From: Hemitrygon akajei | Taxonomy: Eukaryota | Length of the DNA: 64,000 bases | Reading direction: 5' to 3' | Assembly: GCF_048418815.1 (NCBI RefSeq) | Contig: NC_133154.1 | Span: forward strand, 388,043 to 452,042 | In this document: one piece after another, positions 29,845 through 60,719 of the stretch | How positions within the stretch are numbered: the stretch's first letter is position 1 | How the letters are laid out: each line of letters starts with the position of its first letter | Position numbers and translations under genes: made by a program | The notes under the pieces: model-generated | Database searches by the model: none | The model's input: the letters and a program-made list of their open reading frames with translations, nothing else | What the model was told of the DNA's origin: nothing

Positions 29845-30270
29845 ATCCCTCGGCTGTTGTCCTGTACGAAGAATCTCTGGATGCGGCCCCTGTGGCCGAC
29901 TGAGTGTCGGGCCATCTCTGAACACGGCAGGGACTGGGTAGGGGAGTGGGAGGTTCCTTGAGCACATTGCCCTCTCTACCATACACGCAGAGCGTTCCCA
30001 TGGAGAGATGGGACAGTGGGGAGGGCAGGAGTGCAGGTGGTTGGTGTGGGAACAAGTGAAGGGTCTGTGAAAATCTGTCAGCAACGCCATTAAACTTCTT
30101 GTTTGTTTTTGTATCAGAGTCCCGCGTCCTGTCTTTGGTCTGGGGAGACAGGAGAGGGGGTGGGTGAGAGCAGGTGAGGAAGGGAAGAAGAGTTAGAGAC
30201 TCCTGTAGGACTCACAGCTGTTTTGAGAAATGTATAAAAAACCTTTATTAAATCGCACACGAAACACGGA
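29845..30270 (+). other. Speculative terminal exon of the + strand gene
   Basis: A polypyrimidine tract and cag acceptor end at 29844. A short ORF ends ...DPSAVVLYEESLDAAPVAD* in the phase reached from exon 1 through the 33-nt exon. ATTAAA lies at 30251..30256. Confidence 0.15.
30244..30249 (-). terminator. KIF22: AATAAA polyadenylation signal of the KIF22 3'UTR
   Basis: The plus strand reads tttatt at 30244..30249, about 185 nt downstream of the stop in transcript sense. Confidence 0.45.
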
Positions 30271-30432
30271 GGCTGGGTGGAGCCTCTGACACAAAGCATT
30301 ATGATACAAGCCATCATTACTGACGTACACCAGGAAAGCTGCTCCTTCTCCCACCCCACACCTTGAAGGAAGGAGAGGTGGGAATCCTCGGCAACTCCCT
30401 GAAGGGGGAGGGGGCTTCTGAAACTGACGCTG

Positions 30433-30462
30433 TCACTTGGCAAGGCAGCTGAGAGCGTTGGC
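30433..30462 (-). CDS. KIF22: KIF22 terminal coding exon (ANALSCLAK*); the 3'UTR extends to about 30228
   Basis: Acceptor tctctgtctcacag. It is in frame with the preceding exon. The peptide matches the kinesin Kid C-terminus as I recall it (...FLKANILGL...). Confidence 0.6.
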   Translation of the reverse strand, partial: ANALSCLAK

Positions 30463-31304
30463 CTGTGAGACAGAGAGAATGTGTTACATCCAGGGGTCAG
30501 GAAAGGGAAAGAGGCAGAGTGTTAGAGCCCATTGTAGTAGAGATGAGTCAGTTACACAGCACAGAAACAGCCCTTCAGCCCAACCAGTCCATGCTGACTC
30601 AGATCCCCATCTGAACCTGTCCTATCTGCTCACAATTGACCCAAATCCCTCTAAATCTTTCCTACGCATGGACCTGTCCGAGTGTCTTTTACATGTTAAT
30701 GTAGTTGCCTCAGCCACTTCCTCTGGCAGCTCGTTCCATTTATGGATGAAAAAGGTCCCTATTAAATCTCCTTTCCCTCATACTTTAAATGTGCCCTCTG
30801 GATTTTGATTCCCCAACCCGGGGAAAAGACTGCACATTCACCCTATCTGTGCCCCTCATTTTATACACCTCTGTAAGGTCAACTCTCAGTCTCCTACGCC
30901 CCAGGGAATAAAATCACAACCCATCCAATCTCTTCCATGTCTCAAGTCTCAACACCTCATAAATCTTCACCACGCTTTTTCCATCTAAACAGCATCTTTC
31001 CTATAGCTTAGTGACCAACACTTCAAGGCAGATCACCAACATGGGCTCCCTTCCACAAACCTCCTGATGGGAGGTTCCCTCCATTCCACAATCCTCCTGC
31101 AGTGAGATACACCCCTCCCACAACCTGCTGGGAAAAAGCTCCCCTCCCATTGGAAGCAACCCTCCCTTCTTCCAAACCCCCGGGAGAGAGGTTCTCTCCC
31201 ACAGGTCCCCTGCTACGTGAGGTGTAAGAGCCTCATGCAGCTGACCTGCCACCAGCCCCTCTCTGTCATTTGTTGAGTTGTTTTTTCACCTCTTGATTTC
31301 TCAC

Positions 31305-31361
31305 CTTCATGAAGGTGGAGAGGAACTTGGCTGACATGCCGACCTTGGCAAGATCCTCAAT
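31305..31361 (-). CDS. KIF22: KIF22 exon (IEDLAKVGMSAKFLSTFMK)
   Basis: Acceptor ctctctctgcag, donor GTGAGAAAT, phase 0 to 0. It is homologous to the VEDLERVEGI.GKQMESFLK segment that follows the HhH domain of Kid. Confidence 0.7.
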
Positions 31362-31499
31362 CTGCAGAGAGAGGAAGAGGGAGTGTGGTGAGAACTGGGA
31401 GGGAGGAAGAGAGGTTCAGAGACACACTGAACCCCAATCCCCTTGTTCTGCTCAAATCTGTCCGTCCATTTCCCACCCCCTCTCAAGATCAATTAACTG

Positions 31500-32820: not shown

Positions 32821-33418
32821 AGTGGAGTAGACTTGCTGGGCTAAATTCCACTCCTATGTCTCATGGTCTCTCTGCACACACATTCACCCCAAAATCTGTC
32901 CATTCCCTACCACCCATTGGTTCCCCCTGCAACATTGTGGCACAACTGTGCAGGCACATGGACATCAGCGAGTTAGAGCAGTAGGAAGAATTTAAAAAGA
33001 AGACAGCTACATAGAGCGGACGATATAGAAGGGGTCAGAATAGGAGAGCTTTGGCTCAACGGGGCTTCAGCGAAAACACGTCGAGGCAAGGTAAGTTACT
33101 TGTGAAGAATAGGAATGGGAAGTATGTCTGTGAAGTCGGTGTTCTGTACTGGGTGTTAGACGTGGCCGCATGTGTGCCGGGTGTGTTGAGTTGCAGCTCC
33201 TGAGGGACCGCGTTAGTGAACTGGTGATGTAGTTCGACAACCTTCGTCTGGTCAGGGTAAGTGAGGAGGTGATGGAGAGGAACTATAGGCAAGTAGTCAC
33301 ACTGGGGCCTCGGGAGACAGGTAAGTGGGTAACAGTCAGGAGAGTGAAGGGCAAGGGTCAGATATTAGAGGGTACCCCTGTGGCTGTCCCCCTTAACAAT
33401 AAGTACTCCTGTTTGAGT

Positions 33419-34035: not shown

Positions 34036-36759
34036 TCCTGTTTGAGTACTGTTGGGGAGAGGGGTGGTTGACCTACCAGGGGGAAACAACAGTGGCTGCA
34101 CTTCTGGCACAGAGTCTGGCCCTGTGGCTCAGAAGGCTAGGGAAAGGAACAGGATGGCAGGTGTGATAGGGGACTCTATAGTTAGAGGATCAGACAGGCG
34201 ATTCTGTGGACACAGGAAAAAAACTGGGATGGTAGTTTGCCTCCCAGGTGCCAGGGTCCGAGACGTTTCTGATCGTGTCCGCGATATCCTGAAATGGGAA
34301 GAACAGCCAGATGTAGTGGTACGTATTGGTACCAACGACATGGGTAGGAAAAGGGAGGAGGTACTGAAAGCAGACTACAGGGAGTTAGGAAGAAGCTGAG
34401 AAGTAGGACCTCAAAGGTAGTAATCTCGGGATTACTGCCTGTGCCACATGACATTGAGTATATGAATAGAGTGAGGTGGAGGATAAATGCGTGGCTGTGG
34501 GATTGGAGCAGGGGGCAGAGATTCAGATTTCTGGATCATTGGGACTTCCCTTGGGGCAGGCATAACCTGTACAAAAAGGACGGGTTGCACTTGAATCCAA
34601 GGGGGACCAATATTCTGGCAGGGAGGTTTGCTATGGCTATTGGGGAGAGTTTAAGCTAGAATTGCTGGGGGGTGGGAACCGAACTGAAGAGACAGAGGAA
34701 GGCTCACAGATAGAGAAAGCTTGTAGACAGTGTGAGAGGGAGGATAGGCAGGTGATAGAGAAGGGACATGCTCAATCCAATGGTTTGAGATGTGTCTATT
34801 TTAATGCAAGGAGGATCATGAACAAAGTGAATGAACTTAGAGCATGGATCAGTACTTGAAGCTATGATGTTGTGGCCATTACAGAGACTTGGATGGCTCA
34901 AGGACAGGAATGGTTACTTCAAGTGCCAGGCTTTAGATGTTTCAGAAAGGACAAGGAGGGAAGCAAAAGAGGTGGGGGCATGGTACTGCTGATCAGATAG
35001 TGTCATGGCTGCAGAAAAGGAGGAAGCTGTCTACTGAGCCTCTGTGGGTGGAAGTTAGAAACAGGAAGGAGTCAATAACTCTACTGGGTGCTTTTTTTAA
35101 ATATATCGTTACAGGGACTTCGCGGAGCACATAGGGTGACAGATTCCAGAATGGTGCATAATAATAGGGTTGTCATGATGGGAAATTTTAATTTCCTCAA
35201 TATTAATTGGCATCTCCCTAGAGCAAGGAGTTTAGATGGGCTGGAGTTTGTTAGGTGTATTCAGGAAGGTATGTAGGTAAGCCTACAAGAGGAGAGGCTG
35301 TACTTGATCTGGTATTGGGAAATGAATCTGGTTAGGGGTCAGGTCTCTCAGTAGGAGAGCATTTTGGAGATAGTGATCACAATTCTATCTCATTTACCAT
35401 AGCATCGGAGAGGGATAGGGACAGACAAGTTAGGAAAGCATTTGATTGGAGAAAGGGGAAATATGAAGCTCTCAGGCAGAAACTTGGAAGCAGTAGATGT
35501 AGTGTATATGGATTTCAGCAAGGCATTTGATAAGGTACCCCATGGAAGGCTTATTGAGAAAGTAAGGAAGCATGGGATCCAAAGGAGCCTTGCTTTGTGG
35601 ATCCAGAATTGGTTTGCACACAGAAGGCAAAGAATGCTTGCAGACAGGTCATATTCTGCATGGAGGTCGGTGACCAGTGGTGTGCCTCAGGGATCTGTTC
35701 TAGGACCCTTTCTCGTCATAATTTTAATAAATGACCTGGATAAGGAAGTGGAGGTATGGGTTAGTAAGTTTGCTGATGACACAAAGGTTGGGGGGTGTTG
35801 TGGATAGTGTGGAGGGCTGTCAGAGGTTACAGCGGGACATTGATAGGATGCAAAACTGGGCTGAGAAGTGACAGATGGAGTTCAACCCAAATAAGTGTGA
35901 GGTGGTTTATTTTGGTAGGTCAAATATAATGGCAGAATATGGTATTAATAATAAGACTCTTAGTAGTGTGGAGGATCAGAGGGATCTTGGGATCCAAGTC
36001 CATAGGACACTCAAAGCTGCTGCGCATTGGCCTTCATCAACCTTGGGATTGAGTTCAAGAGCTGAGAGGTAACGTTGCTGCTATATAGGACCCTGGTCAG
36101 ACCCCACTTGGAGTACTGTGCTCAGTTCTGGTCACCTCACTACAGGAAGGAGGAAACTAGAAAGGGTGCAGAGGAGATTTACAGGATGTTGCCTGGATTG
36201 GGGAGCATTACCTATGAGAATAGGTTGAGTGAACTTGGCCTTTTCTCCTTGGAGCGACAGAGGATGAGAGGTGACCTGATAGTGGTGTATAAGATGATGA
36301 GAGGTATTGATCATGTGGATAGGCAGAGGCTTTTTCCCAGGGCTGAAATGGCTAACATGAGAGGGCACAGTCTTAAAGTGCAGAAGTAGGTACAGAGGAG
36401 ATGTCAGGGGTAAGTTTTTAAAAAAATGCAGAGTGGTGAGTGCGTGTAATGGGCTGCCGGCGATGGTGGTCTTTAAGATCTTTTAAGAGACTCCTGGATA
36501 GGTACATGGAACTTAGGAAAATAGAGGGCTATGGATAACCCCAGGTAATTTCTCAGGTAAGGACATGTTTGGCACAGCATAGTGGGCCGAAGGGCCTGTG
36601 TTGTGCTGTAGGTTTTCTATGTTTTGATGTTTCTATGTAACCACCTAGAGGAGTCTACCACAGCCCCAACCCCATGTACTTGTGATGCGGACTGTCCCAC
36701 CTGCTTCTCACACTTTGTGTGAGGTCTGTGAGAACCCACCCCCAGCCCTTAGTCTGTAC

Positions 36760-36954
36760 CTGCGAGTACGGCCCATGGCACTCTCTCCAGCCAAGAATGA
36801 GCTGAGCGGTCTTGTCTCCCACCCTCTGCAAGGTCTTGAGCTGGCGGAGGGAGCCCTCATTCAGCACGGCCAGGATCTGTTCCTTCTGCTGTTCAGCAAG
36901 TTGTACATCCATCATCAACTCTACACCACCCCCCTGCTCCTTCTTTGCATTGTC
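36760..36954 (-). CDS. KIF22: KIF22 exon encoding the C-terminal helix-hairpin-helix DNA-binding domain
   Basis: The translation is DNAKKEQGGGVELMMDVQLAEQQKEQILAVLNEGSLRQLKTLQRVGDKTAQLILGWRECHGPYSQ. This is the ComEA-type HhH consensus. It aligns with the Kid segment [39 protein letters not shown]. Acceptor ctctccaccacctccag, donor GTACAG. Confidence 0.75.
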
Positions 36955-37508
36955 CTGGAGGTGGTGGAGAGACAGGGGTTGGAGTCAGCACCCACTCACC
37001 ATTCAAACACACTTCCTTCATCTACAGGGTCCAGAGTGGAGGTGGTAAGAGGAGAGGGCAGACACCGGTCACCCCTCACTCACACACACTCACTCTCCAT
37101 ACCAGCCTGCCTTCCCTGGGCTCCAGCGCAGAGAGGAAGGTAAGGACTGGTCAGGTTCTTATTCCTCACCTCTCAGGTACATGTCCCTCCACCCTCTGCT
37201 GGCAGGAGAGGAGGAGGTGGGAGAGAGACAGAGAGGTGGTGTGGAGACTGCAGTTGGATAGCAGTGTTTCTCTCTCATCCCCTCAGCCACATTCTCATTG
37301 AGGGTGTCCCTGAAAAGAGACACCCGTCAGAGTTAACACATCCATTTCCATCTCCACCAACAGTATCGCCCTGAGTACACAGAGTGACCTGGTCGAACAC
37401 AAGACAGCCTCTCTCTCCTTGGTGGGTGGTACTAACCCCTCCTCTCCCACATCCACCCCTCCAACCCCTAATTCCACCCCCCCCCCCCCCCCCCCCCCAC
37501 CATTTTAC

Positions 37509-37579
37509 CTCGACCTGCTTCTCCTTGCGCTTCAGCACCAGCACATCCCCGGTTTGGAGACACTCAGTATTGTCTATGC
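37509..37579 (-). CDS. KIF22: KIF22 exon (R)IDNTECLQTGDVLVLKRKEKQVE
   Basis: Acceptor ctctgctctctcccag, donor GTAAAATG. The phase-1 start matches the phase-1 end of the upstream exon. The basic KRKEK cluster aligns with Kid KNKGRKRK. Confidence 0.6.
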
Positions 37580-37856
37580 CTGGGAGAGAGCAGAGGCACA
37601 CACAACCGTCAGAGTGAACAAGGCAGGGGAAGGGTGAGGGTTTGAGGAACAAGAAGTGGGCAATGTTGGGAACAATGAGGGGGGTGGGGGAAGAGTTAAG
37701 GGAGTTGGATGACGGAGAGAAGGGGGGCTGATGACAGAATGGGGTAGAGAAGGGAGCAGGGTTTAGATATAGGTTGATAGGCAGAGGGAGGAGGTACGAA
37801 GACAGCCCCATGCATCGGTCTCCCTCCCTCCTGGACCCCTCACCCACAGAACGTAC

Positions 37857-38013
37857 GCTGTAAAGGGGTGACGATGGCTTTGTTCCTTTTCTTAGCCACT
37901 GAACTCTTACGCAGGATGGGGTCCTTGCCACAGGGGAGGAGGCCATTTCCAGTTCCTGTGGTTTCCTGTGCACTAATGACTTTCTCGAGTTCTTGCTGTC
38001 TCCGCTCCAAATG
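37857..38013 (-). CDS. KIF22: KIF22 stalk exon (HLERRQQELEKVISAQE...KKRNKAIVTPLQ)
   Basis: Acceptor atacacccag, donor GTACGT, phase 0 to 1. Confidence 0.6.
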
Positions 38014-38411
38014 CTGGGTGTATTTTATATAGATAGATATAAATATACACACACACACACCGAGAGGAGGGGGTAGAGAGGGAGAGAGAGAGAGGTACAT
38101 TGTGTGGTCAGATGACATCTCTCTGACATCTAGTTCCCTTAGCGTACAGGGATTCCCCTCTTTCTAACCCATGGGCCACAAGGCAAGATAAGGAACAGGG
38201 ATATTGCTGAATTCTCCCTCTCCCTCCAACCACTTTGCCCAAAGGTCTTTGCCCGAAACATTGAATGCTTTTATCCCTCTGTAGATACTGCCTGACCTGT
38301 TGAGTCTGTGGTGCTCTATATTTGCAGCATCGAAATAATATTGTATCCATCTCCCCAGTTCCCTCCCTCTCCTCCCCACTCCACCTCAGTGATCACTATG
38401 CTGTGATGGAC

Positions 38412-38762
38412 AGCAGGAATACCGGCCTGACACCACCCCCATCCCTTCCCCTGTGCACCTGGATCTGATCCTGGCCTGACCCCACCCCCATCCCTTCCCC
38501 TGTGCACCTGGATCTGATCCTGGCCTGACACCACCCCCATCCCTTCCCCTGTGCACCTGGATCTGATCCTGGCCTGACACCACCCCCATCCCTTCCCCTG
38601 TGTACCTGGATCTGATCCTGGCCTGACACCACCCCCATCCCTTCCCCTGTGCACCTGGATCTGATCCTGGCCTGACACCACCCCCATCCCTTCCCCTGTG
38701 CACCTGGATCTGATCCTGGCCTGACACCACCCCCATCCCTTCCCCTGTGCACCTGGATCTGC
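38412..38762. repeat. 49-bp minisatellite, about 7 copies
   Basis: The unit is ggatctgatcctggcctgacaccacccccatcccttcccctgtgcacct. Its first unit is the intron start of the KIF22 exon 38753..38936. The Gly/Arg-rich ORFs in the six-frame track here are artefacts of the repeat. Confidence 0.85.
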
Positions 38763-38936
38763 CGCCGGCTCTCCTCCAGCTTCCTGAGGAGTTCCTGCCT
38801 CTCGGCCTTGGGTGTGCCCAGCACAGGCAAGCCACTCCGACCCTGTGTGCGCAGCAGGTCCTCTAGCTTCGACAGACGCTCCATCACATCCGGCCCGTAC
38901 ACCTCACTGTTCAGTTCCTCTGGTTTCAGCAGTGGA
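38753..38936 (-). CDS. KIF22: KIF22 coiled-coil and stalk exon (PLLKPEELNSEVYGPDVMERLSKLEDLLRTQGRSGLPVLGTPKAERQELLRKLEESRRQIQ)
   Basis: Acceptor tctttccccactcgctgatctctggcag, donor CAG|GTGCAC, phase 2 to 0. It aligns with the Kid segment [32 protein letters not shown]. Confidence 0.7.
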
Positions 38937-39068
38937 CTGCCAGAGATCAGCGAGTGGGGAAAGAGCAGGTCTAGTTATCATCCTGGCTGAGGACACAGCT
39001 CCACCTACCTTCAAACTCAAAGTAAATTTATTATCAAAGTACTGTATGTTTTTATATATATATATATA

Positions 39069-39933
39069 CCGTAGATTCCGGATTTTAAGCCTCTACTTTT
39101 TTCCCACATTTTGAACAGCTTTGAACTTTGCGGCCTTTAAAACGGAGCGGCTAATGTATTATTTTTTTTCATGCCGGCCGAAAACATTTTGCCTCGTAAC
39201 AGTAGACCAATAAAATTGATGAGTAGTTCACAGAGGTCCAATGAAATTGTACGATAAATCAAGCGCACTTTCACAATTAAATTATTGTAAATCAGTCATT
39301 TGTACTCACCCTCATCAACATGGAAAACACTCGAAGAAAAGCATTGTGCTGCCTTTATGGCAGTTATTTAGTTTATAATATTTTCGCTTAGTAATTCATT
39401 TTCTAGTTAAAGTTAGAAGAGTTTTAACTATATTTGTTTTCTGTACTACATCGCGGGATGCTATGACGTCACACCTGGTTTCGCCGCGTCTTGTGGGAAA
39501 ACGCCGGTTTGCGATAAAACGGGACGGCGGGGGTCGAGCGGCGGAGCGAAAACGCTGCTTTTAAGTTAAAGGCGATCAATAACTTTTCCTGGTAGGCTGC
39601 AGTATATATATTTTTTACCAGTCGTTAGGAGATATTGGAATGTTGTTCAGTAAAAAAGTATACGCAACGTATATTTAAAAGTAGCCGTGTTACGGGCACG
39701 GTTCGAAAAAAAGCATTTGCAATATGTATTTGTTTTTGTTACCATATGGATTTAATTAAAAGTTAAAAAATCCTCACGTGTAATATCTTTCTGTGTAAAT
39801 ATCTCATATTACAACGTGGGACACCTGCGGCCGAAAATCCGGTGCGGCCTTTACAAGTAAAAAATTGATTTTATTTCTAAAATTAGAGCCAGCGGCTTTT
39901 AATCAGGTGCGCTCTGTAGTCCGGAATCTACGG
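39069..39933. mobile_element. 865-bp non-autonomous TIR DNA transposon (MITE-like) inserted in a (TA)n microsatellite
   Basis: Perfect 14-bp TIRs ccgtagattccgga at 39069..39082 and tccggaatctacgg at 39920..39933. Subterminal ggccgaaaa repeats. No ORF. It is flanked by tatata on both sides. It contains a CpG-dense patch with TGACGTCA at 39464..39471. Confidence 0.65.
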
Positions 39934-40099
39934 TATATATACACACACACACACACACCTTGAGATTCATTTCCTTGCAGGCATTTACAGGAAAAATAAA
40001 GAAATATATTAGAAATTATGAAAAGCTATAAATAGAAAAGACTGGCAAACAGCCAATGTGCAAAACAAAACAAATTGTGCAAATACAAAAAAAGAGAAA

Positions 40100-43000: not shown

Positions 43001-43745
43001 CTGCCAAACCCTTGCCCTTTCACTTAACCTATCAATATCTCTGCAGACTTTCCAAATCCTCTGTACAACCTGCTTTCCTACTCAATTTAGTGTCATCAGC
43101 AAACTTGGATATGCTGCACCCGGTCCATACTACCAAATGTTTAACGTATATGGTCAACATTTGCAGGCCCAGCAGTGATCCCGACTGCACTCTGCTCACC
43201 ACTTAACTACCAATCAAAGAAACACCCATTTATCCTAACTCCCCATTTTTTGTTGGCGAACCAACCGTCTATCCATGCTAATAACATTTCCCCATCTCCA
43301 TGCATTTTTATCTTATGTGCAAGTCCTGCATCTGCACACACATATGATCCAAATTACTACTACAAGGGTATGTGTGTCTAAAATGTCACAGGCTCTCAGA
43401 CTATGTTCCCTCTAAGCGCACACACAGGTTTTTCAACCAACGCCTGTCCAATCAAGGATCTATCAGCCTCTGCCTTAACTATACATATGGTCTCCACAGC
43501 TACCCGTGGCAAAGAATTCCACAGATTCACCACTCTCTGGCTAAAGAAATTCCTCCTCATCTCTGTTCTAAAAGGACACCCCTCTACTCTGAAGCTGTGT
43601 CCTCTGGTCTTAGACTCTCCCATTATAGTAAACATCCTCTTCACATCCATCTAATCAAGGTCTCTCACCATTTCATAGGTTTCAATGAGATCATCTGTCA
43701 TTCTCTGAATTCCAGTGAATACAGGTCCTGAGGGGTCAAATAATC
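40100..43745 (-). mobile_element. Cluster of LINE-X fragments with CR1-like tail pieces at the downstream end
   Basis: LINE-X fragments lie at 40100..40730 and 41880..42340, with LQFAYCHNRSTVDAISLVLH at 40524..40715 and LPSGRRRRSLGSQFTRFRNSYYPSPIRLSN at 42095..42337. CR1-like tail pieces span 42430..43745, including RGHSFRVEG...RRNFFSQRVVNLWNSLP at 43396..43650. Confidence 0.5.
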
Positions 43746-43749
43746 TCCT

Positions 43750-46700: not shown

Positions 46701-46985
46701 GTTTTCAAGTGTATTTACAGTTTTGGGGGTTTGAACGTCCTGATTTATATTCTCTATATTGTGTTGTGGTTGGTCTGGAGTTTTTTGTTGTGGGGCTTGG
46801 GGAGGATACTAACTTTACATGACTTCAATTTGGGTGCTTTCTCAATTATCTTTTTTGTATTATATTATTATTGTATGTTTATTTTTGCACTGTATTAATT
46901 TTCTTCATTTTGGTTTGGGGTTTTTTTTTCTATCTGTAGTAATGTAGAAAATGCATTTAAAAAACCAATTAAAAAAAAATACTTC
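43750..46985 (+). mobile_element. 5'-truncated L1-like LINE: ORF2 RT and C-terminal domain, 3'UTR and A-rich tail
   Basis: ORFs at 44199..44837, 44922..45647, 45686..46192 and 46092..46637 carry [36 protein letters not shown] and YADDI. The 3' end carries an A-rich tail (ccaattaaaaaaaaat). Confidence 0.8.
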
Positions 46986-48805
46986 TCAGCCCACTGTCAT
47001 TTGCAAGCTCGAGGAGTTGATCTTCTTCCCGCGCTGACATGGATGATTCACCAGGGACATTCACAAATGGGTCACAGACCCATTCCTTTGCACGTCTTGG
47101 GTCATTTGTGGTTGGGAAGTAACACTTGAATTCTGTCGACAGCGAAGATAGGTGATCGCGTACCAGCTGTGAGAAGGACAGTGCAGCCTCAGTCTCTCCC
47201 AAAATCCCAGCTAATGTTGGGAACATGTCAAATATGCCCCTGTCCACTCGCTGTCCCCACAGTTCCAGTTTGGCTTTGAAAGCAGACACTTTATCTGCCA
47301 ACTTGAAGACAGTTGTCATTCTCCCCTGAAGTGACAAATTGAGTTCATTGTGCGGGCTGAAGATGTCACACAGGTAGGCGAGTTTTGCTATCCACTCCTC
47401 GTCACTGAAGTATACTACCAGTGGTGACTTTTTTCCTGAAAGAAATCTCTAGTGGCTCTCTTAACTCAAAAACCCTGGCCAGGGCTCTCCCCCTTGATAA
47501 CCACCTGACTTCAGTGTGTAAGAGAAGGCGTTTGTGCTCTGCATCCATTTCCTCGCAAAGCTGCTCAAACAGATGTGAGTTAGGGGCTCTTGCTTTGATG
47601 TGATTGATAACTTTAACAACATCACTCAATACGCTGTTAAGATCAGGTGACATTTTTCGGCTAGCCAGCATTTCCCTGTGTATGACACAGTATGTAGACT
47701 GGCATTCAGGAACAACCTCTTTGACTCGGGTAGTGAAACCAGACAGCCGTCCGTCCAGTCATAGCTGAAGCCCCGTCTGTGCATATTCCAACACTGAATG
47801 ACCAGTCCAGTTTGCCTGACATGTAGTCATTCAAAAACTTGGAATAGTTCTGCCCCAGTTGTGTTAGTTGGCAGTGGCAGCGCACACAAAATATCCTCAT
47901 GCACATCATCTTGAAATATATATCACACATAAACCAGCACTGTTGCCTTGTTGTCAACATCGGTAGACTTGTCGACCTGGATGGCATACCATGGTGACTC
48001 GTTAAGCCGTTCCAACAGCTGTGCTTCGATGTCCTCCACTATGTCATTGATTCTCCTTGAAACTGTGGTAGCTGAAAGAGAAACCTGTGCCATCTTGTTA
48101 GCTGCAGCTTTTCCCAACAGTTCACGGCACATGTCCTTGGCAGCAGGCAGAATCAATTTTTCACCAACAGTGAAAGGCTTCTTAGCCTTAGCAATACGGC
48201 TAGCCACTAAGTACGACGCTCTCAGAGCAGCAGCATTTGTGAAGGTGGTGGCTCTCAGCACTTGCTTCTGTCCCGCCTGCTCACGTTTTCTCCGCTCAAA
48301 AAACTCAACAGGTTTGTCTTTAAGTGCAGAGTGTTTGGACTCAAGATGCCACAGCAGTTTTGAGGGCTTCATTGCCTCATTAGACAGCTTGTCTCCACAT
48401 ATCACACACAGGGGGCTGGGAGTGTGGAAGTCACCGGTCGCATTAAAGCCATATTTTATGTACGACTTGTTGTATTTTCTGTTGAAGGAAGCTTTCTTTT
48501 TTTTGCAGTCTCGGCCTCAATTGTCTCTGCGTTATCATCATCGTTAGGCCTTTTATGTCCCCTACCACCTCTTCCAAAGAAACTCTTAAGCGGCGTTTGG
48601 TTTTTACTCATCGAGTAGTTGCAGGTTAATGACCGACTGATGACCTTATGTATGTAATGACCTCGCTTGTGTTCAAGTTCAACAGAGGGCATGACAGGGA
48701 ATGAGGAAAGGTGCAGCTGACTCATATCGTTTCATACCGCCAGATCATATTGTTTCCTCGCGGCCCGGTAGCACATGCTTTGCGGCCCGGTGGTGGGGGA
48801 CCACT
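46986..48805 (-). mobile_element. hAT superfamily transposon with a frameshifted transposase; 5' TIR intact, 3' end truncated by the adjacent L1
   Basis: Minus ORFs at 48456..48725, 47923..48405, 47706..47987, 47402..47671 and 46969..47337 give a ZBED/FAM200-like transposase. The 5' terminus cagtggtcccccaccaccgggcc is RC at 48805. It is the likely parent family of the MITE at 2808..2951. Confidence 0.75.
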
Positions 48806-49382
48806 GTTCTAGTCCTCCTGAAATGAATACTAACATTGCATTTGCCTTCCTCACTTGCAAATCAGCTTGCAAATTAACCTTGAGGGAATCCTGCACAAGG
48901 ATTCCCAAGTCTCTTTGTTCCCACGTATTTTTTAATATATTTTCTCTCCATTTAGAAAATAGTTAACTCTTTCCTTTCTTCTATCAAAGTACATGACCAT
49001 ATTCCATCTGCCATTTCTTTGCCCATTCTCCTAATCTGCCCAAGTCCTTCTGCAGCCTCTCTACTTCCTCAAAACTACCTGTCCCTCCACCTATCTTAAA
49101 ATCATCTGCAAACTTTTCAACAAAGCCATCAATTCCACCATCCAAATCATTGACATATATATGGTAAAAAGAATCGGTCACAACACAGAACCCTGTGGAA
49201 CACAGCTAATCACCGGCAGCCAGCCTTAAAAGGCTCCCTTTATTCCCACTCCATTCATCCTGCCAAACTGTCTCTGCTTTATTCATGCTAGAATCTTTTC
49301 AGGAATACTATTGGTTCGTAGTTGTTAAGCAGCCTCACATGTGGCACCTTGTCAAAGGCCTGAAAATCCAAGTACAATCGGC

Positions 49383-50263
49383 CCTCCTTATTCCACATGC
49401 GCGAATTCAACCAACCACGAATTGTGAAAACCCAGAAGTGCTCTTCCAGCACTTGTTGTTCGAACATGTACAGACTTTTTTTCTTGTCATTATTCCCTAA
49501 ACAATGCAGTATAACAAACATTTTACATAGCATTTACATTGTATTAGGTATTATAAGAAATCTAGAGATGATTTAAAGTATACGGGAGGATGTGCGTGGG
49601 TTATCGTGCATCGGAATCGAAAAAAATCGGAAGTTCTCTTACTAAGTAAGTCGGAACAGGTACATCCAGTATTAGTTAGTGTCAGTTAGTCAAACGTTTG
49701 TCTTAGTATATAGTATATATTTAACCTTTCTATGCATATAAAACACTTAAGAACGTATGTTTCAGCGCCGGGCTTGGGAACAGAAGTTCTTGGGACTTGG
49801 GACAGACCGCTCCCTAGAGCGCTCTCCACCATGCCGGGTTGATGTGGAGGATCAAAAACTCAAAACCCCAAAACCTAATATTAAACCACTGTGTTGCTTA
49901 GTACTAATTGTAGCTTTCATCGGGGCAGAGCCTTTCTCACTTTATCCTTTAAAATTGTTCCGATCATTGACTGACTTAGCCTAATGCTTTTCCAATGACC
50001 GATGGCGTTTCACCTCTTTCCGATCACTTTATTATTTCCACTTTATTTTCAATCGTGATTATTTTTGTGAATAGAAACACTGCACATTCAGAGCTCTGGC
50101 ACCAGGTCCTAATGTCCACCGCACTGAGACAGGTTAAATAAGGTCTGGGGTTCCGCTGGGTCCTAAGGTCCACCGGATTGAGACATCTGCAAATTTTGGT
50201 ATCCATGAGGGGTCCCAGAACCAATCCCTCGTGGATAAGGAGGGCCAACTGTACACAACATCA
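49383..50263. mobile_element. About 880-bp non-autonomous TIR element inserted in a CR1 RT fragment
   Basis: Imperfect terminal inverted repeats (t)cggccctccttattccac and gtggataaggagggccaac. Subterminal direct repeats ggtcctaa(t/g)gtccaccg..ttgagaca. No ORF. It interrupts a CR1 sequence between ...aaaatccaagtaca and catcaaccaattctcc. Confidence 0.45.
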
Positions 50264-52646
50264 ACCAATTCTCCTATCTATCCTGCTTGTAATTTCTTCA
50301 AAGAATTCCACCAGATTTGTCAGGCAAGATTTTCCTTCGAGGAAACCATGCTGACTATGGCCTATTTTATCACGTGTCTCCAAATACCCCGAGGCCTCAT
50401 CCCTAATAATAGACTCCAACATATTCCTAACCATTGATTTTAGACTAATTGGCTTATAATTTATTCTGCCTTTCTGTCTTGACAAGATCACAAGACAAAG
50501 GAGCAGGAGTAGGCCGTTCGGTCCATCGAGTCTGCTCCACCATTCCACCATGAGCTAAACTATTCTCCCGTCTAGTTCCAATTTCCAGCTTTTTTCCCAT
50601 ATCCCTTGATACCCTGACTAATTAGATACCTGTCAATCTCCTCCTTAAAAACCCTCAATGATTGGGCCTCCGCAGCTGTATGTGGCAACGAATTCCATAA
50701 ATCCACGACCCTCTGGCTAAAAAAAACTCTTCTTGAAGAGTGGGGTGACATTTGCAATTTACCAGTCTTCCAGAACCATTCCAGAATCTAGTGCTTCTTG
50801 AAAGATCATTACTAATGCCTCCATGATCTCTTCAGCCATCTCGTTCAGAACCCTGGGATGTAGACCACCTGGTCCAGATGACTTAACTACCTTCAGACCT
50901 TTCTGTTTCCCAAGAACCTTCTGTCTAGTTATTGTAACTTCACATGCGTCATGCCTCCTGAACTTCTACCATACTGCCAGTGTCTTCCACAGTGAAGACT
51001 GATGCAAAATACTTATTCAGTTTGTCCACCATTTCATGATATCCAATCACTTCTTCTCCAGCGTCGTTTTCTAGTGGTCCAATATCCATCCTCGCCTTTC
51101 ACACTTTATGTATCTGAAGAATCTTCTGGTGTCCTCTTTAATATTATTCATTAGCTTATTTTTGTATTCCATCTTTATCTCCTTAATGACTTTTTTGTTT
51201 GCCTTCTTTTGGTTTTTAAAAGCTTCCTAATCCTCTAACTTCCTGCTAATCTTTTCTCTATTACATGCCCTCTCTTTGGTTTTCATGTTGGCTTTGACTT
51301 CTCTTGTTAGCCGTGGTTGTGTCATCTTTCCTTTAGAATACTTCTACCTCTTTGGAATGTGTATATTCCGTGCCTTCTGAATTGCTTCCGGAAATTCCAG
51401 CCATTACTGCTCTGCCATCATCCCTGCCAGTGTTCTTTTCCAGTCAATTGTAGCCAGCTCCTCTCTCATCCTCTGTAATTCCCTTTACTCCACTGTAATA
51501 CTGATACATCTGACTTTAGCTTCTCCTTCTCAAATTTAAGGGTGAATTCAATCATATTATGATCACTTGCCCCTAAGAGTTCTTTTACCTTCAGCTTGCT
51601 AATCAATTCCGGTTCATTGCACAACACCCAATCCAGAATCCAGAAAAGCCATCTCGTAGGCACTCTAGAAATTTCCCCACCTATAATCCAGCACCAACCT
51701 AATTTTCCCAATCTACCTACATATTGAAATCCCCTATGACTATTGTATCATTGCCCTTTCGGCATTTCGGATTTGTAAGCCACATCCTACTGTTCAGGGG
51801 GTCTGTATATAACTCCCATCAGGGACTTTTTACTCTTTCAGTTCTCTAGCTCTATCTGCACTGATTCAACACCTATTGATTTGATTTTTTACCATCAGAG
51901 CAACACCACCTCCTCTGCCTTCCTGCCTATCCTATCGATACAATGTGATCTCTTGGACATTAAATTCCCAGCTATAATGTTTAGCCATGACTTAGTGATG
52001 TCCATAACATCATACCTGCCACACTTGGCCGCAGTCCATCATACACTGTAAACCTGTTCTTCCATTCCTCAGACCATCCCAACCCACAAATCAACAAGTC
52101 ATCTCTTGCTTTAGGCCAGGTGGGGGAAGATAGGAACTCTGACTGTTGCTGATTCTCTTACACACAAAGACAGACACTATGCTTCGAATCTGGGATCCCT
52201 CTGTCCTTATGTTGGAATTGTGCAGTCCCAGATCCCCATTTGAGCCAATCCCAACTGCTTGAGCTTACCCTCTAACTCTCAAAACCTTTCCCATCCATGG
52301 TTAATGTACCTGTCACAACCACTTCCTGCAGCATGTTCCATATATAGAACACTCCCTGGGTGAAATAGTTGTCCCCCAGGTCTCCTTGCTTTCAACCTGT
52401 GCTCTGCAGTTCTCAAAAGGAAAGGTTGAGGGATATGGGCAAACATGGGACTAGTTCGAATAGGGAAGTGGGTCGGCAGGGACCGGTTGGAAGGGCCAGA
52501 TTCCCTGATGTGTGGCTGTATCTGCAAGTCCAGCACGTTTCTTTCAGAGTGAATGGTGGAACCCATTTCTGGTACCACAGAAGCAGACAGAATGTCATGC
52601 TTTGTCCGTACACTCCACATGGCACCCATTCTAACCTTTCCACACA

Positions 52647-52758
52647 CCTCAAGGATAGCCCTCCGGATCCACCAGCATTTTCTGAATCATCCGCTTTGAA
52701 GACCTTGGCAGCCCCTTCCGAAGGGTCCTCCTGCTGATGTCGTTTCAGAGGATGCACA
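52647..52758 (-). CDS. KIF22: Candidate KIF22 neck/linker exon ((G)VHPLKRHQQEDPSEGAAKVFKADDSENAGGSGGLSL)
   Basis: Acceptor tcccctctcttcaag, donor GTGTGT. The phase-1 start and phase-2 end exactly bridge the motor exon (ends phase 1) and the exon at 38936 (starts phase 2). The composition matches the acidic linker of Kid. Confidence 0.4.
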
Positions 52759-53793
52759 CCTTGAAGAGAGGGGATTGCAATGAAGAACAAGAGTCATGGA
52801 TTGACAGTTATACAGTACAGACACAGGTCCTTTGGCCCAACTCACTCCCACCTTCCCCTAGGCCTCTAACCCATGCCAATCCATGTACTTACCCGGAAAT
52901 GTTTAAACATCGTCAATGTGGCCATCTCAACCACTGTTTCTGGCAACTCATTCCAAATAAACACCACCCTCTGCATGAAGAAGTTGCCACTGATGGCCCT
53001 TTTAAATCACTCTCCTCTGATCTTAAACTGCTGCCCTATGTTTTTTAGCACCCCCCCCCCCCCCAAGAAACAGGCTCTGTGCAATCTTTGCCCTGCATGA
53101 TCTTATAAAACAAGTAGGCCATTTGGCCCATCGAGTCCGCTCCGCCACTCCACCGTGGCTGATTTACAATCCCTCTCATCTCCACCCTCCTGCCTTCTCC
53201 CCGTAACATTTGACACCCTGACTAATCAAGAACCTATCTACCTCCACTTTGAATATACCTAATGACTTGACCTCCATTGCTGACTGCGGCAATGAATTCC
53301 ACAGATTCACTACCCCCTGGCAGAAGAAATTCCTCCTCATCTCTGTTCTAAAGAGGCACCCCTCTATTCTCCGGTCATAGACTCCCCTAGTATAGAAATC
53401 ATCTCTATAGCCACTCTGTCTGGGCCTTTCATTATTCTAAACTCAAGTGAGTACGGGTCCAGAGCCATCAAACACTCCTCATATGTTTCATTCCCTGGAT
53501 CATTCTCATGAACCTCCTCTGGACCCTCTCCAATGCAGAATTGCTCAGAATACTTCAAGCATGGAATGACCAATGACTTACAGTGCTATAAAAAGTATTC
53601 ACTACCGCCCCTTGGAAGTTTTTATACTTTAATCATTTCACAATATTAAATCACAAGTGCATTTAATTTGCATTTTTTGATACTAATCAACAAAAAAAGA
53701 CTGTTTCAAGTCAAAGTGAAAACCAATCTAGAATAATTAGAAATATAAAACACAAAATAATTGACTGCATAAGTATTCAGCCCTTTAATTCAA

Positions 53794-54088
53794 ATGAGAG
53801 GACATGATTTGAGAGTTAGGGGGCAAAAGTTTAAGGGAAACACGAGGGGGTATTTCTTTACTCAGAGAGTGATAGCTGTGTGGAATGAGCTTCCTGTAGA
53901 AGTAGTAGAGGCCAGTTCAGTTGTGTCATTTAGGGTAAAATTGGATAGGTATATGGACAGGAAAGGAGTGGAGGGTTATGGGCTGAGTGCGGGTAGGTGG
54001 GACTAGGTGAGATTAAGAGTTCGGCACAAACTAGGAGGGCCGAGATGGCCTGTTTCCGTGCTGTGATTGTTATATGGTTATAATATGA
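53794..54088 (+). repeat. CR1 3' tail copy A; inverted partner of 54830..55130
   Basis: It is about 96% identical over about 290 bp to the reverse complement of 54830..55130. Confidence 0.7.
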
Positions 54089-54425
54089 TACACCAAGTCT
54101 TCACTGGTGCAGCCAATTGGTTTTAGAAGTCACATAATTAGTTAAATGGAGATCACCATGTGCAGTCAAGGTGTTTCAATTGATTGTAGTAAAAATACAC
54201 CTGTATCTGGAAGGTCCAACTGTTGATGAGTCAGTATCCTGGCAAAAATTACACCACGAAGGAAAAAACCCTAAGAAACTCCATGAAAAGGTTATTGAAA
54301 AGCACAAGTCAGGAGATGGATACAAGAAAATTTCCAAGTCACTGAATATCCCTTGCAGTACAGTTAAGCCAATTATCAAGAAATGGAAAAAATATGGCAC
54401 CACTGTAAATCTGCCTATTTCTGAG

Positions 54426-55705
54426 GACACTTGGAATGAAATTTTTAAATTGGTTAATACTTCATCGTTATGCACCTGTCATTCCCTTCTACAATTTAAA
54501 GTGGTTCATACAGCCCATATGTCTGAAGGTAAGCTGTCTCATTTTTATTCGGATATATCTCCCTATTGTGATAGATGTAATAATGGAGAAGCTTCACTAA
54601 TCCATATGTTTTGGACTTGTCTGAGTCTTGAAAAATATTGGAAGGAAGGTGCTTTTTAAACTAAATTTTAAACCTAATCCTTTGACTGTCTTATTTGGTA
54701 TTGTCGGAGGAAATTATATTATTTTGGAGACACATGATTTGCATAATTTGGCCTTTATTTCTCTTATAGCTAGGAGGGCATTGTTGCTTAAGTGGAAGGA
54801 TGCCACTTCACCCACTCATACTCATTTCATGATGTTATATAACCATATAACAATCACAGCATGGAAACAGGCCATTCCGGCCCTCCTAGTCCGTGCCGAA
54901 CTCTTAATCTCACCTAGTCCCACCTACCCACACACAGCCCATAACCCTTCACTCCTTTCCTGTCCATATACCTATCCAATTTTACCTTAAATGACACAAC
55001 TGAACTGGCCTCTACTACTTCTACAGGAAGCTCATTCCACACAGCTATCACTCTCTGAGTAAAGAAATACCCCCTCGTGTTTCCCTTAAACTTTTGTCCC
55101 CTAACTCTCAAATCATGTCCTCTCGTTTGAATCTCCCCTACTCTCAATGGAAACAGCCTATTCACGTCAACTCTATCTATCCCTCTCAAAATTTTAAATA
55201 CCTCAATCAAATCCCCCCTCAACCTTCTACGCTCCAATGAATAGAGACCTAACTTGTTCAATCTTTCTCTGTAACTTAAGTGCTGAAACCCAAGTAACAT
55301 CCTAGTAAATCAATTATGTCTTGCTTAAATTTAGAGAAGATTCACCATTCAATTTCTGAACCTAGACAAGATTTTTTAAACATTGTGGGGACCTTTTTTG
55401 AATTACTTTCAAAATCTTTGATTTGCTATTAAGCACAGATGTTGGCTAATAATATGTTTTACTATATGTTAAGGATTTTTTCCTTTTCTTTTTTTTTAAA
55501 CCAAACAGCTGTATTTTTTTTCTGGTAGTAGGTTTAGATATTTTGTATAATAAAATTATTTTTTCCAATTTTATGTTTAAATTTAATCTATATGGATATG
55601 GGGTAATTACACTTCATCTGTGATTTCAATATATTGTAATTGAAATATATTATATATCTTACTGTACCCTGTATTCTTTTATGTAAGAAATTAATAAAAA
55701 TATTG
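54426..55705 (+). mobile_element. 5'-truncated L1-like 3' fragment inserted in the Tc1 element
   Basis: The ORF at 54171..54659 reads SLCTCHSLLQFKVVHTAHMSEGKLSHFYSDISPYCDRCNNGEASLIHMFWTC. It is homologous to 46130..46330 of the large L1 copy. The A-rich tail is aataaaaatattgaaaaagaaaaag. An approximately 125-bp duplicated Tc1 segment flanks it. Confidence 0.65.
54830..55300 (-). mobile_element. CR1 3' tail copy B, nested in the L1 fragment
   Basis: The ORF at 54914..55300 (-) reads GLYSLERRRLRGDLIEVFKILRG...RGHDLRVRGQKFKGNTRGYFFTQRVIAVWNELP. Confidence 0.7.
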
Positions 55706-56989
55706 AAAAAGAAAAAGAAAAGCACAAGTCAAGAGATGGATACAAGAAAATTTCCAAGTCACTGAATATCCTTGGAGTGCAGTAAAGTCAATCATCAACA
55801 AATGGAAAGAATATGGCACAGCTGTAAATCTGCCTAGAGCAGGCCATCCTCAAAAACTGAGTGACCGTGCAAGATGGGGACTAGTGAGGAAGACCACCAA
55901 GAGACCTATGACAACTCTAGAGGAGGTACAAGTTTCAGTGGCTGAGATGAGAGAGACTGAGCATACAACTGTTGCCCAGGTGCTTCACCAGTTGCAGCTT
56001 TATAGGAGAGAGGCCAAGAGAAAGCCACTGTTAAAAAAAAAACACAAATGAAATCTCAGCTGGAGTTTGCCAGAAGGCATGTGGGAGACTCTGAAGTCAG
56101 CTGGAAGAAGATGCTATGGTCTGATGAAACCAAAATTGTGTTTTTTGACCATCAGACTAACACTACACTTGGCGTAAGCCAAACACCACACATCATCAAA
56201 AACACACCATCCCTACCATGAAGCACAGTAGTGGCTGCTGTGGGAATGCTTCACTGCAGCAGGCCCTGAAAGGCTTGTGAAGGTAGAGGGTAAACTGAAT
56301 GCAGCAAAATACAGGGAAATCCTGCAGGAAAAAGCTGATGCAGTCTGCAAGAGAACTGTGACTTGGGAGAAGATTTGTTTTCCAGCGAGACAGTGACCCC
56401 AAGCATAAAGCCAAAGCTGCACAGAAATGGCTTAAAAACTATAAAGTTAATGTCCTGCAGTGGCCAAGTCAGAATCCAGAACTCAATCCAACTGAGAATT
56501 TGTGGCTGGACTTGAAAAGTGCTGTTCACTTATAATCCCCATGCAATCTGACAGAGCTTGAGCAGTTTTGCAAAGAAGAATGGGGAAACATTGCAGAGTC
56601 CAGATATGCAAAGCTGATAGAGACCTATCCACACAAATTCAAGGATGTAATTGTTGCCAAAGGTGCAGCTACTAAATAATGACTTGAAGTAGGAGAGTAA
56701 TTATGCAATCAATTATTTTGTGTTTAATAAAGTAATAATTTGAGACCTAGTTGTAGAAATTTGGTTTCACATTGGCACGAATGTTTTTTCTGTTAATCAG
56801 TGTCAAAAAAGCCAAATTAAATCCACTGTGACTCCGTGTTGTAAAACAATAAAACATGAAAACTTGTGGGGGGGGGGGGGGGGGGGCGGTAGTGAATACA
56901 TTTTATAGGCACTGTATGAAGCCTCAGCATTACATCCTTGTTTTTATGTTCTGGTCCTCTCAAAATAATGCAAATACTTGATTTGCCTT

Positions 56990-58110
56990 CCTTATCACTG
57001 ACTCAACCCGCAAGTTAACCTTTAGGGAATCCTGCACGAGGACTGTCATGTCCCTTTGCCCCACTGATTCCTGATTTTTCTCCCAACTTAGAACCTTTAT
57101 TCTTTCTACAACCGTGTAAGTGCGTACACTTGCCTACACTATATTTCAGCGCTATATCTTTGCCCTTTCCCCTAATCCAAGTCCTTCTGCAGACTCCCTA
57201 CACTTATCTTTCTATCATCGACAAATTAAGCCAGCCATCCAAGTCATTGACATAGAACATTAAAAAAAACAATCCCAACATCAACCTCTGCGGAGCACCA
57301 CTAATCACCAGCAGTCAAACAAGAAAAGGCTCCCTTTATTTCCACTCTTTACCTCTTGCCAACCTTCTATCCATCCTAGTACCTTTCCCATAATTCCATG
57401 GGCTCTTAGCTTCTTAAGCAGGCTCATGTGTGACATCTTGTCAAAGGCCTTCTGAAAATCCAAATAAACAACACCCACTGACTCTCCTTTGTCTATCCTT
57501 CCTGTTATTTTCTCAAAGAATTCCAACAGATCTGTTAGACAAGATTTCACCTTAAGGAAACCATGATGACTTTGGCCTATTTTATCTTGTACGTCCAAGT
57601 ATCCTGAAACCACATTCTTGACAATAGACTCCAACATCTTCCCAACCACTGAGGTCAGGTGAATTGGCTTATAATTTCCTTTCTTCTGCCTGCCTCTCTC
57701 CCTTCTTAAAGAGTAGAGTAACATTTGCAATTTTCCAGTTCTCTGGAACCATTCCAGAATCCAGTGATTCTTGAAAGATCATTACTAATGCCTCCACAAT
57801 CTCTTCAGCCACCTCTTTCAGAACCCTGGGGTGTAGACCATCTGGTCCAGGTGACTTGTCTATATTCAGATCTTTCAGCTTCCCAAACACCTTCTCTTCA
57901 GTAACAGCAACTGCACTCACTTCTGTACCCTGACACTCATGAACCCTTCCAAACATTTTATTAAAATCCACATCCACTGGTCTGCATTCATCAATGTGCT
58001 TTGTCACATTCAATTAGGCTTGGGAGGAATTGCTTGCCTCTCACAAATCCATATTGACTATCCCTCATCAGAGCATGTTTCTCCAAATGCCTGTAAATCA
58101 TGTCTCTAAG
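56990..58110 (-). mobile_element. CR1-like RT fragment
   Basis: ORFs at 57305..57730 and 57669..58013 carry VYLDFQKAFDKMSH and KSPGPDGLHPRVLKEVAEEI. Confidence 0.65.
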
Positions 58111-58562
58111 AATCTTCTCTAATAACTTATTCACCCCTGAATAAGACTGACTGGTCTATAATTCCCAGGGCTATCTCTACTGCCTTTCTTGAACAAAGGA
58201 ATAACATTTGCCCTCCTTTGATCATCTGTTCCTACTCTGTGGCTAGTAAGGACACAAAGATCATTGGCAAGGACGCAACAAACTCTTTGCTCACATCCCA
58301 TAATAACCTGGGGTATATCCTCAGCCCTGGGGCAGCTAATGTTTTCCAAAAGTGCCAGTATAACCTCTCATTGCTCAAGGTTTCCAGTATCTTCAGGATC
58401 TGTTGTGTCTCTGAATAAAGTGACATTCCAGAAGCTCACCAGTGCAGTATGAGAGACACCGTGTGTAGTCCTGGTCTGTCTGTGACGCAGAGAGTGACTG
58501 GGCCCCATGTGACAGCCAGATTCAGGGTGTAGCTTTAATACGCCAATTCCTCTGACACTCAC

Positions 58563-58716
58563 CGATAGGTTGGATGGTTTCACTGGTGAAAGGATGGTTG
58601 ACGATCAGCTTGGACTTGGCAGCAAAGTTGAGGGCGGTCAGGGTGTTGAAGTAGTGCTTGTATTCAGGTGCAATGTTGGTGATCATTACACTGTGAGCCG
58701 TGCCTCCCAGTGAGTC
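58563..58716 (-). CDS. KIF22: KIF22 exon encoding the C-terminal part of the kinesin motor domain
   Basis: The translation is [52 protein letters not shown]. It aligns with Kid DSLGG.[44 protein letters not shown]. Acceptor ccaaccccaccccag, donor GTGAGTGTC. Confidence 0.75.
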
Positions 58717-58779
58717 CTGGGGTGGGGTTGGACAAAGAACCTGTTACACACCCTGATCAGTTCAAACCCCCCCTTCCAA

Positions 58780-60710: not shown

Positions 60711-60719
60711 GCTGGAGCA

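Follow-up and report, generated by a model that had tools for sequence, protein, structure and literature searches.

The chromokinesin KIF22 (Kid), a kinesin-10, is built from a motor domain, a coiled coil and a DNA-binding tail with two helix-hairpin-helix (HhH) motifs (PMC13581288), and the role of the CDK1 site T463 of the human protein has been described (PMC9302971). Drosophila NOD, also a kinesin-10, likewise combines an N-terminal motor with a C-terminal DNA-binding tail (PMC13581288). This likeness is drawn from the literature, and NOD was not among the homologues of the KIF22 tail in the searches run here. We analysed a window of 64,000 nucleotides (nt) in which a preliminary description had placed the 3' half of KIF22, and found that positions 30228..58716 of the minus strand very probably hold the 3' half of a functional, single-copy KIF22/Kid orthologue of a cartilaginous fish. 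That interpretation is supported after two corrections, a shift of exon 2 and the division of one proposed intron into two.

The identity of the gene was examined through its exons and its spliced product. A tblastn search with the KIF22 protein of the sawshark Pristiophorus japonicus (XP isoform X2, P0001) recovered all eight of the proposed exons, in order, on the minus strand and with no competing place in the window; for six, E-values lay between 1e-23 and 2e-4. When the spliced product was searched for protein homologues, all named matches were KIF22, the top ones being those of the sharks Pristiophorus (65% identity, E=1e-121) and Mustelus (62%), with none above 65% in the collection. 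Among structures in the PDB, the best match for the motor end was the human KIF22 motor (6NJE, E=9e-17), followed among kinesins by KIF15 (E=3e-4), and the best match for the tail was the human KIF22 HhH domain (2EDU, E=1e-20, residues 238-316). Both the named homologues and the PDB search thus place the product closer to KIF22 than to other kinesins. In an end-to-end alignment of the product with KIF22 of sharks, frog, teleosts and a hemichordate, 50 columns were invariant.

In the corrected model, the eight exons join in phase from 58716 to 30433 into 960 nt (319 codons and a TGA), uninterrupted by stops or frameshifts and with canonical (AG/GT) dinucleotides at all 14 splice sites. Seven of the exons stand exactly as first proposed, with canonical borders, but exon 2 had been placed one base off. 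The exons consist of unique sequence, in a window made up of at least 44% repeats, and are spread across 28 kb with transposon-filled introns. Aligned to an intronless transcript contig of a related species (L002), the product is colinear across the exon joins and shows no break at the junctions.

Table 1. Features of the KIF22 locus. Exons are numbered from the first (exon 1) to the last (exon 8) in the window, all on the minus strand.
Feature	Position	Strand	Details
Exon 1	58563..58716	-	motor end and start of neck/linker; ends in phase 1; AG/GT
Intron 1	52760..58562	-	5.8 kb
LINE reverse-transcriptase fragment	57305..57778	-	intron 1; Pfam RVT_1 E=2e-10
Tc1/mariner transposase fragments	54171..56048	+	intron 1
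Exon 2, linker, corrected	52648..52759	-	GVHPLKRHQQEDPSEGAAKVFKADDSENAGGSGGLSL; phase 1 in, phase 2 out; AG/GT
Intron 2	38937..52647	-	13.7 kb
hAT transposase remnant (Charlie/ZBED5-SCAND3-like)	46972..48516	-	intron 2; frameshifted, 3'-truncated
LINE, 5'-truncated	43719..46634	+	intron 2, antisense to gene; Pfam RVT_1 E=5e-17, 1e-16
Exon 3	38753..38936	-	PLLKPEEL...VMERLSKLEDLL...GTPKAERQELLRKLEESRRQIQ; AG/GT
49-bp x 6.9 tandem array	38424..38761	-	begins in last 9 nt of exon 3; TRF
Exon 4	37857..38013	-	HLERRQQELEKVISAQ... rest of coiled coil, then variable stalk ...KKRNKAIVTPLQ; AG/GT
Exon 5	37509..37579	-	(R)IDNTECLQTGDVLVLKRKEKQVE, basic patch; AG/GT
Exon 6	36760..36954	-	first HhH motif and start of second; AG/GT
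Exon 7	31305..31361	-	second HhH motif, IEDLAKVGMSAKFLSTFMK; AG/GT
Exon 8, coding part	30433..30462	-	ANALSCLAK and TGA (stop 30435..30433); AG acceptor
3' UTR, putative	30228..30432	-	AATAAA at 30249..30244

We compared the locus with the sawshark protein and with Mustelus asterias, using its protein 'KIF22-B' (P0002) and the corresponding genomic locus (L001). End-to-end identity to the shark KIF22 proteins was 64-66% against either shark, and 73% between the two sharks. The window protein is therefore farther from each shark than the sharks are from one another, which indicates a separate lineage. The Mustelus gene contains the same eight 3' exons, with seven of seven intron positions and phases identical. 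Four exons differ in length, by 6-12 nt and solely by multiples of 3, and the seven phases are conserved for this reason. Both genes have long, repeat-rich introns, and this part of the gene covers 32 kb in Mustelus versus 28 kb here.

Conservation varied from exon to exon. In tblastn with shark KIF22, exon 1 showed 83-89% identity, exon 3 showed 66-68% (E=4e-20; 69% to the Mustelus exon by blastn), exon 4 showed 52-55% (E=4e-10) and exon 5 showed 58-63% (E=2e-4), while exon 6 was recovered at E=4e-20. Exons 4 and 5 share their phase with the Mustelus exons but differ from them in length (157 vs 169 nt and 71 vs 65 nt, respectively). Exon 7 was 90% identical to the sawshark protein (tblastn) and 82% to the Mustelus exon (blastn), with 57 nt in both. 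In exon 8, which has ten codons, eight of the ten residues (80%) matched the sawshark C-terminus ANVLSCLAK. The ending ...MKAN.LSCLAK is common to the sawshark and the window protein, and the C-terminus of Mustelus is 14 residues longer than here. An AATAAA follows the stop, as had been proposed, and lies 183 nt past it; it is the sole AATAAA or ATTAAA within 1.4 kb after the stop, and probably marks the poly(A) site of KIF22.

The linker exon had been described as the least certain of the eight. At 52647..52758 its borders would be GG/TG and its frame would contain two stops, and we rejected those coordinates. The exon itself is real, and a shift by +1 gives it AG/GT borders and an open frame. 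By tblastn it matched residues 284-322 of the sawshark protein (49% identity, E=0.007) and the Mustelus protein (41%, E=0.03). It covers the least conserved part of the protein, and both these modest E-values and the lack of a DNA-level match to the Mustelus exon (blastn) would suit a gene that is KIF22 but takes its linker from an unrecognised exon, of length 1 mod 3, elsewhere in the 19.6 kb that separate exon 1 from exon 3. We consider this exceedingly improbable, because the corrected exon is the only segment of the interval similar to the linker of two shark proteins, has the expected order and strand, and combines AG/GT borders with exactly the required phase. It also has features common to shark KIF22, namely GV.P.KR at its start and SGS..L..SPLLKP over the 3' junction, and the Mustelus linker exon is its counterpart in relative position and phase and is of near-equal length (118 vs 112 nt here).

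Since exon 2 is real, the 19.7-kb span between 58563 and 38936, first described as a single intron, is two introns, but the Tc1, LINE and hAT remains reported within it were indeed found there. The intron 1 Tc1/mariner fragments gave Pfam matches to HTH_SB (E=1e-17 at 54171-54659) and HTH_Tnp_Tc3_2 (E=2e-10 at 55707-56048), both on the plus strand. The plus-strand LINE in intron 2 carries a reverse transcriptase and a C-terminal Cys/His knuckle. The hAT-like ORF fragments alone gave no match in Pfam, and a homologue search was needed to confirm the assignment. This search returned 789 homologues at E<=1e-10, the best at E=1e-270 and 83% identity, with the best matches found in rays. Together with the pattern of identities, these ray matches give no more than a hint of a batoid or another non-shark chondrichthyan. 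The homologues bear names such as SCAN domain-containing protein 3-like, ZBED5, HAT C-terminal dimerisation domain protein and Transposase, and carry PF14291, some also PF05699. The gene is stretched because its introns accumulated these LINE, Tc1/mariner and hAT copies.

The protein assembled from these exons follows the domain order claimed for it: motor end, acidic linker, stalk, a KRKEK patch that closes exon 5, and HhH. The argument that a motor followed by a C-terminal HhH domain is diagnostic of KIF22 fits the published architecture, but the window contains no more of the motor than its final 38 residues. They matched positions 290-327 of the 327 of Pfam Kinesin (PF00225; E=1e-6), at 28.4 bits slightly below the cut-off of 29.3 for this fragment. 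The tail matched HHH_3 (E=6e-7, 29.9 bits vs a cut-off of 27), and two h-x-x-h-x-G-h-G-like motifs can be read in it, one being LAKVGMSAKFL. Pfam and PDB together identify it as a C-terminal DNA-binding region with two HhH motifs, as in KIF22. The stalk between motor and tail holds the conserved coiled coil: the block ERQELLRKLEESRRQIQHLERRQQELEK aligned with this region in Kid of Xenopus and sharks and gave a weak leucine-zipper-type Pfam match (E=0.0012).

Human KIF22/Kid (UniProt Q14807; 6NJE, 2EDU) and Xenopus Xkid share with the window protein the order of motor end, flexible linker, TPK(R)ER, coiled coil, basic patch and two HhH motifs. Linker and stalk are weakly conserved in this comparison, and identity to Xkid is ~41% across the whole tail. 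Exon 3 covers the second microtubule-binding domain region and the TPK motif that corresponds to T463, the CDK1 site of the human protein, and with it the coiled coil begins. At the aligned position of T463 (STPKRER), the window protein reads GTPKAERQ. With Ala, not Arg, three positions past the Thr (TPKA here, TPKR in human), only the minimal S/T-P CDK motif is retained, and the site is a predicted, minimal T-P target of CDK1.

Two measurements address whether this reading frame has been maintained. Against Mustelus, pN was 0.23 and pS 0.76; synonymous sites are saturated at this pS, and we therefore give the raw values and no dS. Against the transcript contig of the related species, dN/dS was 0.16. 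Non-synonymous change is far under synonymous change, which shows purifying selection on the gene. A pseudogene or partial duplicate, a 3' fragment that lacks a working 5' half and is not expressed as a kinesin, would account for the absence of motor exons from 58717..64000, where tblastn with five KIF22 proteins (E<=10, word size 2) found none, and would be in keeping with a locus swamped with transposons and a minisatellite that duplicated a splice donor. It is nevertheless very unlikely in the face of 319 open codons, a full set of canonical splice dinucleotides and a pN well under pS, and the conserved intron positions exclude a retrocopy. In Mustelus, the intron preceding the DSLGG exon is also long (>7 kb), so that the lack of an upstream exon within the 5.3 kb available here is expected. 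The KIF22 locus is very probably an intact, ordinary orthologue; its N-terminal motor exons probably lie past position 64000, and it is presumably transcribed in the source species.

At the exon 3 donor the locus differs from that of Mustelus, which has no 49-bp array there. The array (98% matches, TRF score 662) carries the weak donor CAG|GTGCAC seven times, as read directly from the sequence, so that the donor of exon 3 is followed downstream by six near-identical copies. Splicing probably uses the first of the seven. Computed frames show that copies 4 and 7 are in frame and would add 49 or 98 Gly/Pro-rich residues, an insert that would split the dimerising coiled coil midway, between RRQIQ and HLERRQQ; the remaining four copies shift the frame, and transcripts using them are predicted to contain premature stops. 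It is doubtful, if conceivable, that the array donors serve in splicing, with the array as a lineage-specific modulator, possibly polymorphic in length, of KIF22 output or dimerisation.

We also searched the rest of the window. For a neighbouring gene downstream, long ORFs in 1..30000 gave transposon domains only (Pfam), and neither a MAZ zinc-finger query nor a scan for C2H2 motifs found a match in the same interval. Rfam and tRNA scans of the entire window were empty.

By homology, the tail of the encoded protein would bind chromosome arms and its motor would walk to microtubule plus ends, producing a polar ejection force in mitosis. This is routine annotation and no new kind of thing: the architecture, function and vertebrate distribution of KIF22 are well described, shark orthologues are already annotated, and the significance beyond annotation is small. 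The outcome is a corrected model of the 3' half of KIF22, and it demonstrates that the exons of a conserved mitotic motor gene can be picked out one by one even at a cartilaginous-fish locus dense with repeats. The duplicated exon 3 donor might repay a look, as a natural case of seven near-identical competing 5' splice sites in an essential gene.

We compared five KIF22 proteins with the window by tblastn, which recovered all eight exons, in order and on the minus strand, of the gene that a preliminary description had identified as the kinesin KIF22 (Kid). Seven of the eight exons, described there as joining in phase across AG/GT borders, stood exactly as first placed, while exon 2 was off by one base. 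At 52647..52758 this exon would be flanked by GG and TG and would contain two in-frame stops, and that position was rejected. At 52648..52759 its borders read ...TTCAAG/GTGTGC...CTTGAG/GTGTGT, the frame is open, and the exon is entered in phase 1 after exon 1 and left in phase 2 before exon 3. The same description had considered this linker exon the least certain; it indeed gave the weakest matches (49% and 41% identity; E = 0.007 and 0.03) but is real, and tblastn with the five proteins found no other linker-like sequence between exons 1 and 3. Exon 2 and the shark proteins have in common GV.P.KR at the start and ..SGS..L..SPLLKP over the 3' junction. All 14 splice dinucleotides are canonical, and the joined exons comprise 960 nt, or 319 codons, with a TGA at 30435..30433. 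The AATAAA reported after the C-terminus was confirmed at 30249..30244, 183 nt past the stop, as the only one within the next 1.4 kb.

KIF22 exons and transposon-derived features (Mustelus, M. asterias; sawshark, Pristiophorus japonicus)
Feature	Position	Strand	Length (nt)	Mustelus length (nt)	Content or basis	Sawshark residues	tblastn match (minus)
Exon 1	58563..58716	-	154	154	motor end	232-284	58719..58561
Exon 2	52648..52759	-	112	118	linker; corrected	284-322	52760..52650
Exon 3	38753..38936	-	184	184	GTPKAERQ, coiled-coil start	320-384	38947..38753
Exon 4	37857..38013	-	157	169	remainder of coiled coil	384-441	38016..37855
Exon 5	37509..37579	-	71	65	KRKEK patch	439-462	37586..37515
Exon 6	36760..36954	-	195	189	HhH motif 1	475-533	36921..36745
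Exon 7	31305..31361	-	57	57	HhH motif 2	528-547	31364..31305
Exon 8	30433..30462	-	30	72	TGA stop	547-556	30465..30436
5'-truncated LINE	43719-46634	+			RVT_1, Pfam
Second RT fragment	57305-57778	-
Tc1/mariner HTH domains	54171-54659, 55707-56048	+
Frameshifted hAT remnant	46972-48516	-			SCAND3/ZBED5-like hAT transposase, homologue search, E=1e-270
RVT_1	7494-8627	+
RVT_1	14231-14710	-
DDE_3	27542-27997	-
ALKBH8_N-type match	1545-2225	-

The identification as KIF22 was supported by domains, homologues, structures and alignment. Exon 1 encodes the end of the kinesin motor (Pfam profile positions 290-327 of 327), and exons 6-7 encode an HHH_3 helix-hairpin-helix domain that exceeds the curated Pfam cut-off. 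The spliced product had 31 matches in a collection of 5.8 billion proteins, and all named ones were KIF22. In this search the shark P. japonicus ranked first (65% identity, 100% coverage, E=1e-121) and the shark Mustelus asterias second (62% identity), followed by the transcript-derived protein P0003 (52%), Xenopus (41%), teleosts (~40%) and a hemichordate (34%). Identity of the predicted protein was 64-66% with each of the two sharks and 55% with P0003; the sharks compared with one another gave 73%. These values, like the hAT matches in rays described below, point to a cartilaginous fish outside the lineages of these two sharks. Among PDB entries, the best match to the N-terminal 62 residues was the human KIF22 motor (6NJE, E=9e-17), and the best to residues 238-316 was the HhH domain of human KIF22 (2EDU, E=1e-20); after KIF22, the highest-scoring kinesin was KIF15, at just E=3e-4. 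In the multiple alignment, colinearity held all the way from DSLGG to ...MKANALSCLAK at the C-terminus, and 50 columns were invariant. These results support an ordinary orthologue of the well-known KIF22.

The M. asterias locus (L001) has the same eight exons, and each of its splice junctions falls at the codon corresponding to that in the window; exon length differences are all multiples of three, and all seven intron phases are therefore conserved. As annotated, the Mustelus C-terminus (L001 38903..38974) extends 14 residues beyond the ...SC(L/M)(A/V)K end of the window and sawshark proteins, reflecting either a lineage-specific stop loss or an annotation quirk. Two Logan contigs, L002 and L003 (1.8 kb), encode P0003 as an uninterrupted ORF and are thus spliced transcripts; they align with predicted residues 1-315, unbroken at every junction. 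Were this copy a pseudogene, we would not expect its unbroken reading frame and 14 splice dinucleotides that are all canonical, nor the excess of synonymous (0.76) over non-synonymous (0.23) differences from Mustelus (proportions, the synonymous one saturated), nor a dN/dS of 0.16 against the L002 transcript. This sequence evidence argues for a functional gene.

The exon 3 donor lies at the edge of a tandem array (49 bp x 6.9, 98% matches; 38424..38761, minus strand) that begins in the exon's final 9 nt. The donor CAG/GTGCAC is present seven times at 49-nt spacing, one copy reading GTACAC, with predicted last exonic bases at 38753, 38704, 38655, 38606, 38557, 38508 and 38459. The reading frame is open across the array and copies 1, 4 and 7 preserve it, but only the first gives a product colinear with orthologues. 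Splice-site inspection of L001 found no such array at the corresponding donor in Mustelus. The extra donors may be used in splicing, and the array may be polymorphic or an assembly artefact.

Within 58717..64000, tblastn with the five proteins detected no motor exon preceding DSLGG, which makes the intron there longer than 5.3 kb; its Mustelus counterpart is likewise long, extending past 7 kb of flanking sequence. With 319 of ~640 residues (full size estimated from orthologues), the label of a 3' half was fair.

At least 44% of the window consists of sequence that recurs elsewhere in it or in the Mustelus locus; the exons, by contrast, are unique. The Tc1, LINE (first described as L1) and hAT insertions assigned to a single 19.7-kb intron are present, but because exon 2 is real the interval holds two introns: 52760..58562, with Tc1 copies and one RT fragment, and 38937..52647, with the LINE and hAT. 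A C-x2-C...H-x4-C knuckle and a weak zf-RVT match are compatible with placing the LINE in the L1/Tx1 group. The dead hAT copy, which Pfam missed, has its best matches in rays: protein identity is 81-83% with rays (Mobula, Hypanus) and with the teleost Centroberyx, 70-76% with frogs and further teleosts, and 67-69% with squamates and a spider. In the tail of the host gene, KIF22, cartilaginous and bony fish share just ~40% identity. Such a patchy, high-identity spread is typical of horizontally transferred hAT families. At 54138..54656 (+), a single open frame joins a Tc1 Sleeping-Beauty-type HTH to an L1-type Cys/His RT tail and therefore represents nested transposon fragments. It is flanked by two inverted copies of one LINE 3'-end sequence (53773..54003, +; 54917..55309, -; ...FFTQRVIAVWNELP...), and LINE tails resembling it (FFSQRVVNLWNSLP) are also present at 43399-43650, 50575-50787 and 53179-53436.

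Downstream, coding potential in the 30 kb of 1..30227 was exclusively transposon-derived. No MAZ-like zinc-finger gene was detectable there, unlike in the human KIF22 neighbourhood. A GC-rich (58-65%), CpG-enriched island at ~15750..17250 (CpG obs/exp 0.5-0.84, against 0.1-0.2 nearby) contained no recognisable coding sequence and is directly followed by a tandem array (52 bp x 9.6, 89% matches; 17266..17790); it could be a repeat, or mark an unrecognised neighbouring gene's promoter or first exon.

The domain order first proposed, from motor end through coiled coil and KRKEK patch to HhH, held when placed exon by exon. Kid/KIF22 consists of a motor, a flexible neck/linker, a conserved coiled coil through which the motor dimerises, and a DNA-binding tail with two HhH motifs, and the full-length protein transports dsDNA along microtubules (PMC13581288). 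Its polar ejection force is switched on by CDK1 phosphorylation of T463, directly N-terminal of the coiled coil (PMC9302971). Each of these elements has a place on the exons described here, with GTPKAERQ of exon 3 as the putative counterpart of the T463 site. Judged by homology to this published architecture, the KIF22 of H. akajei would function like Kid/KIF22.
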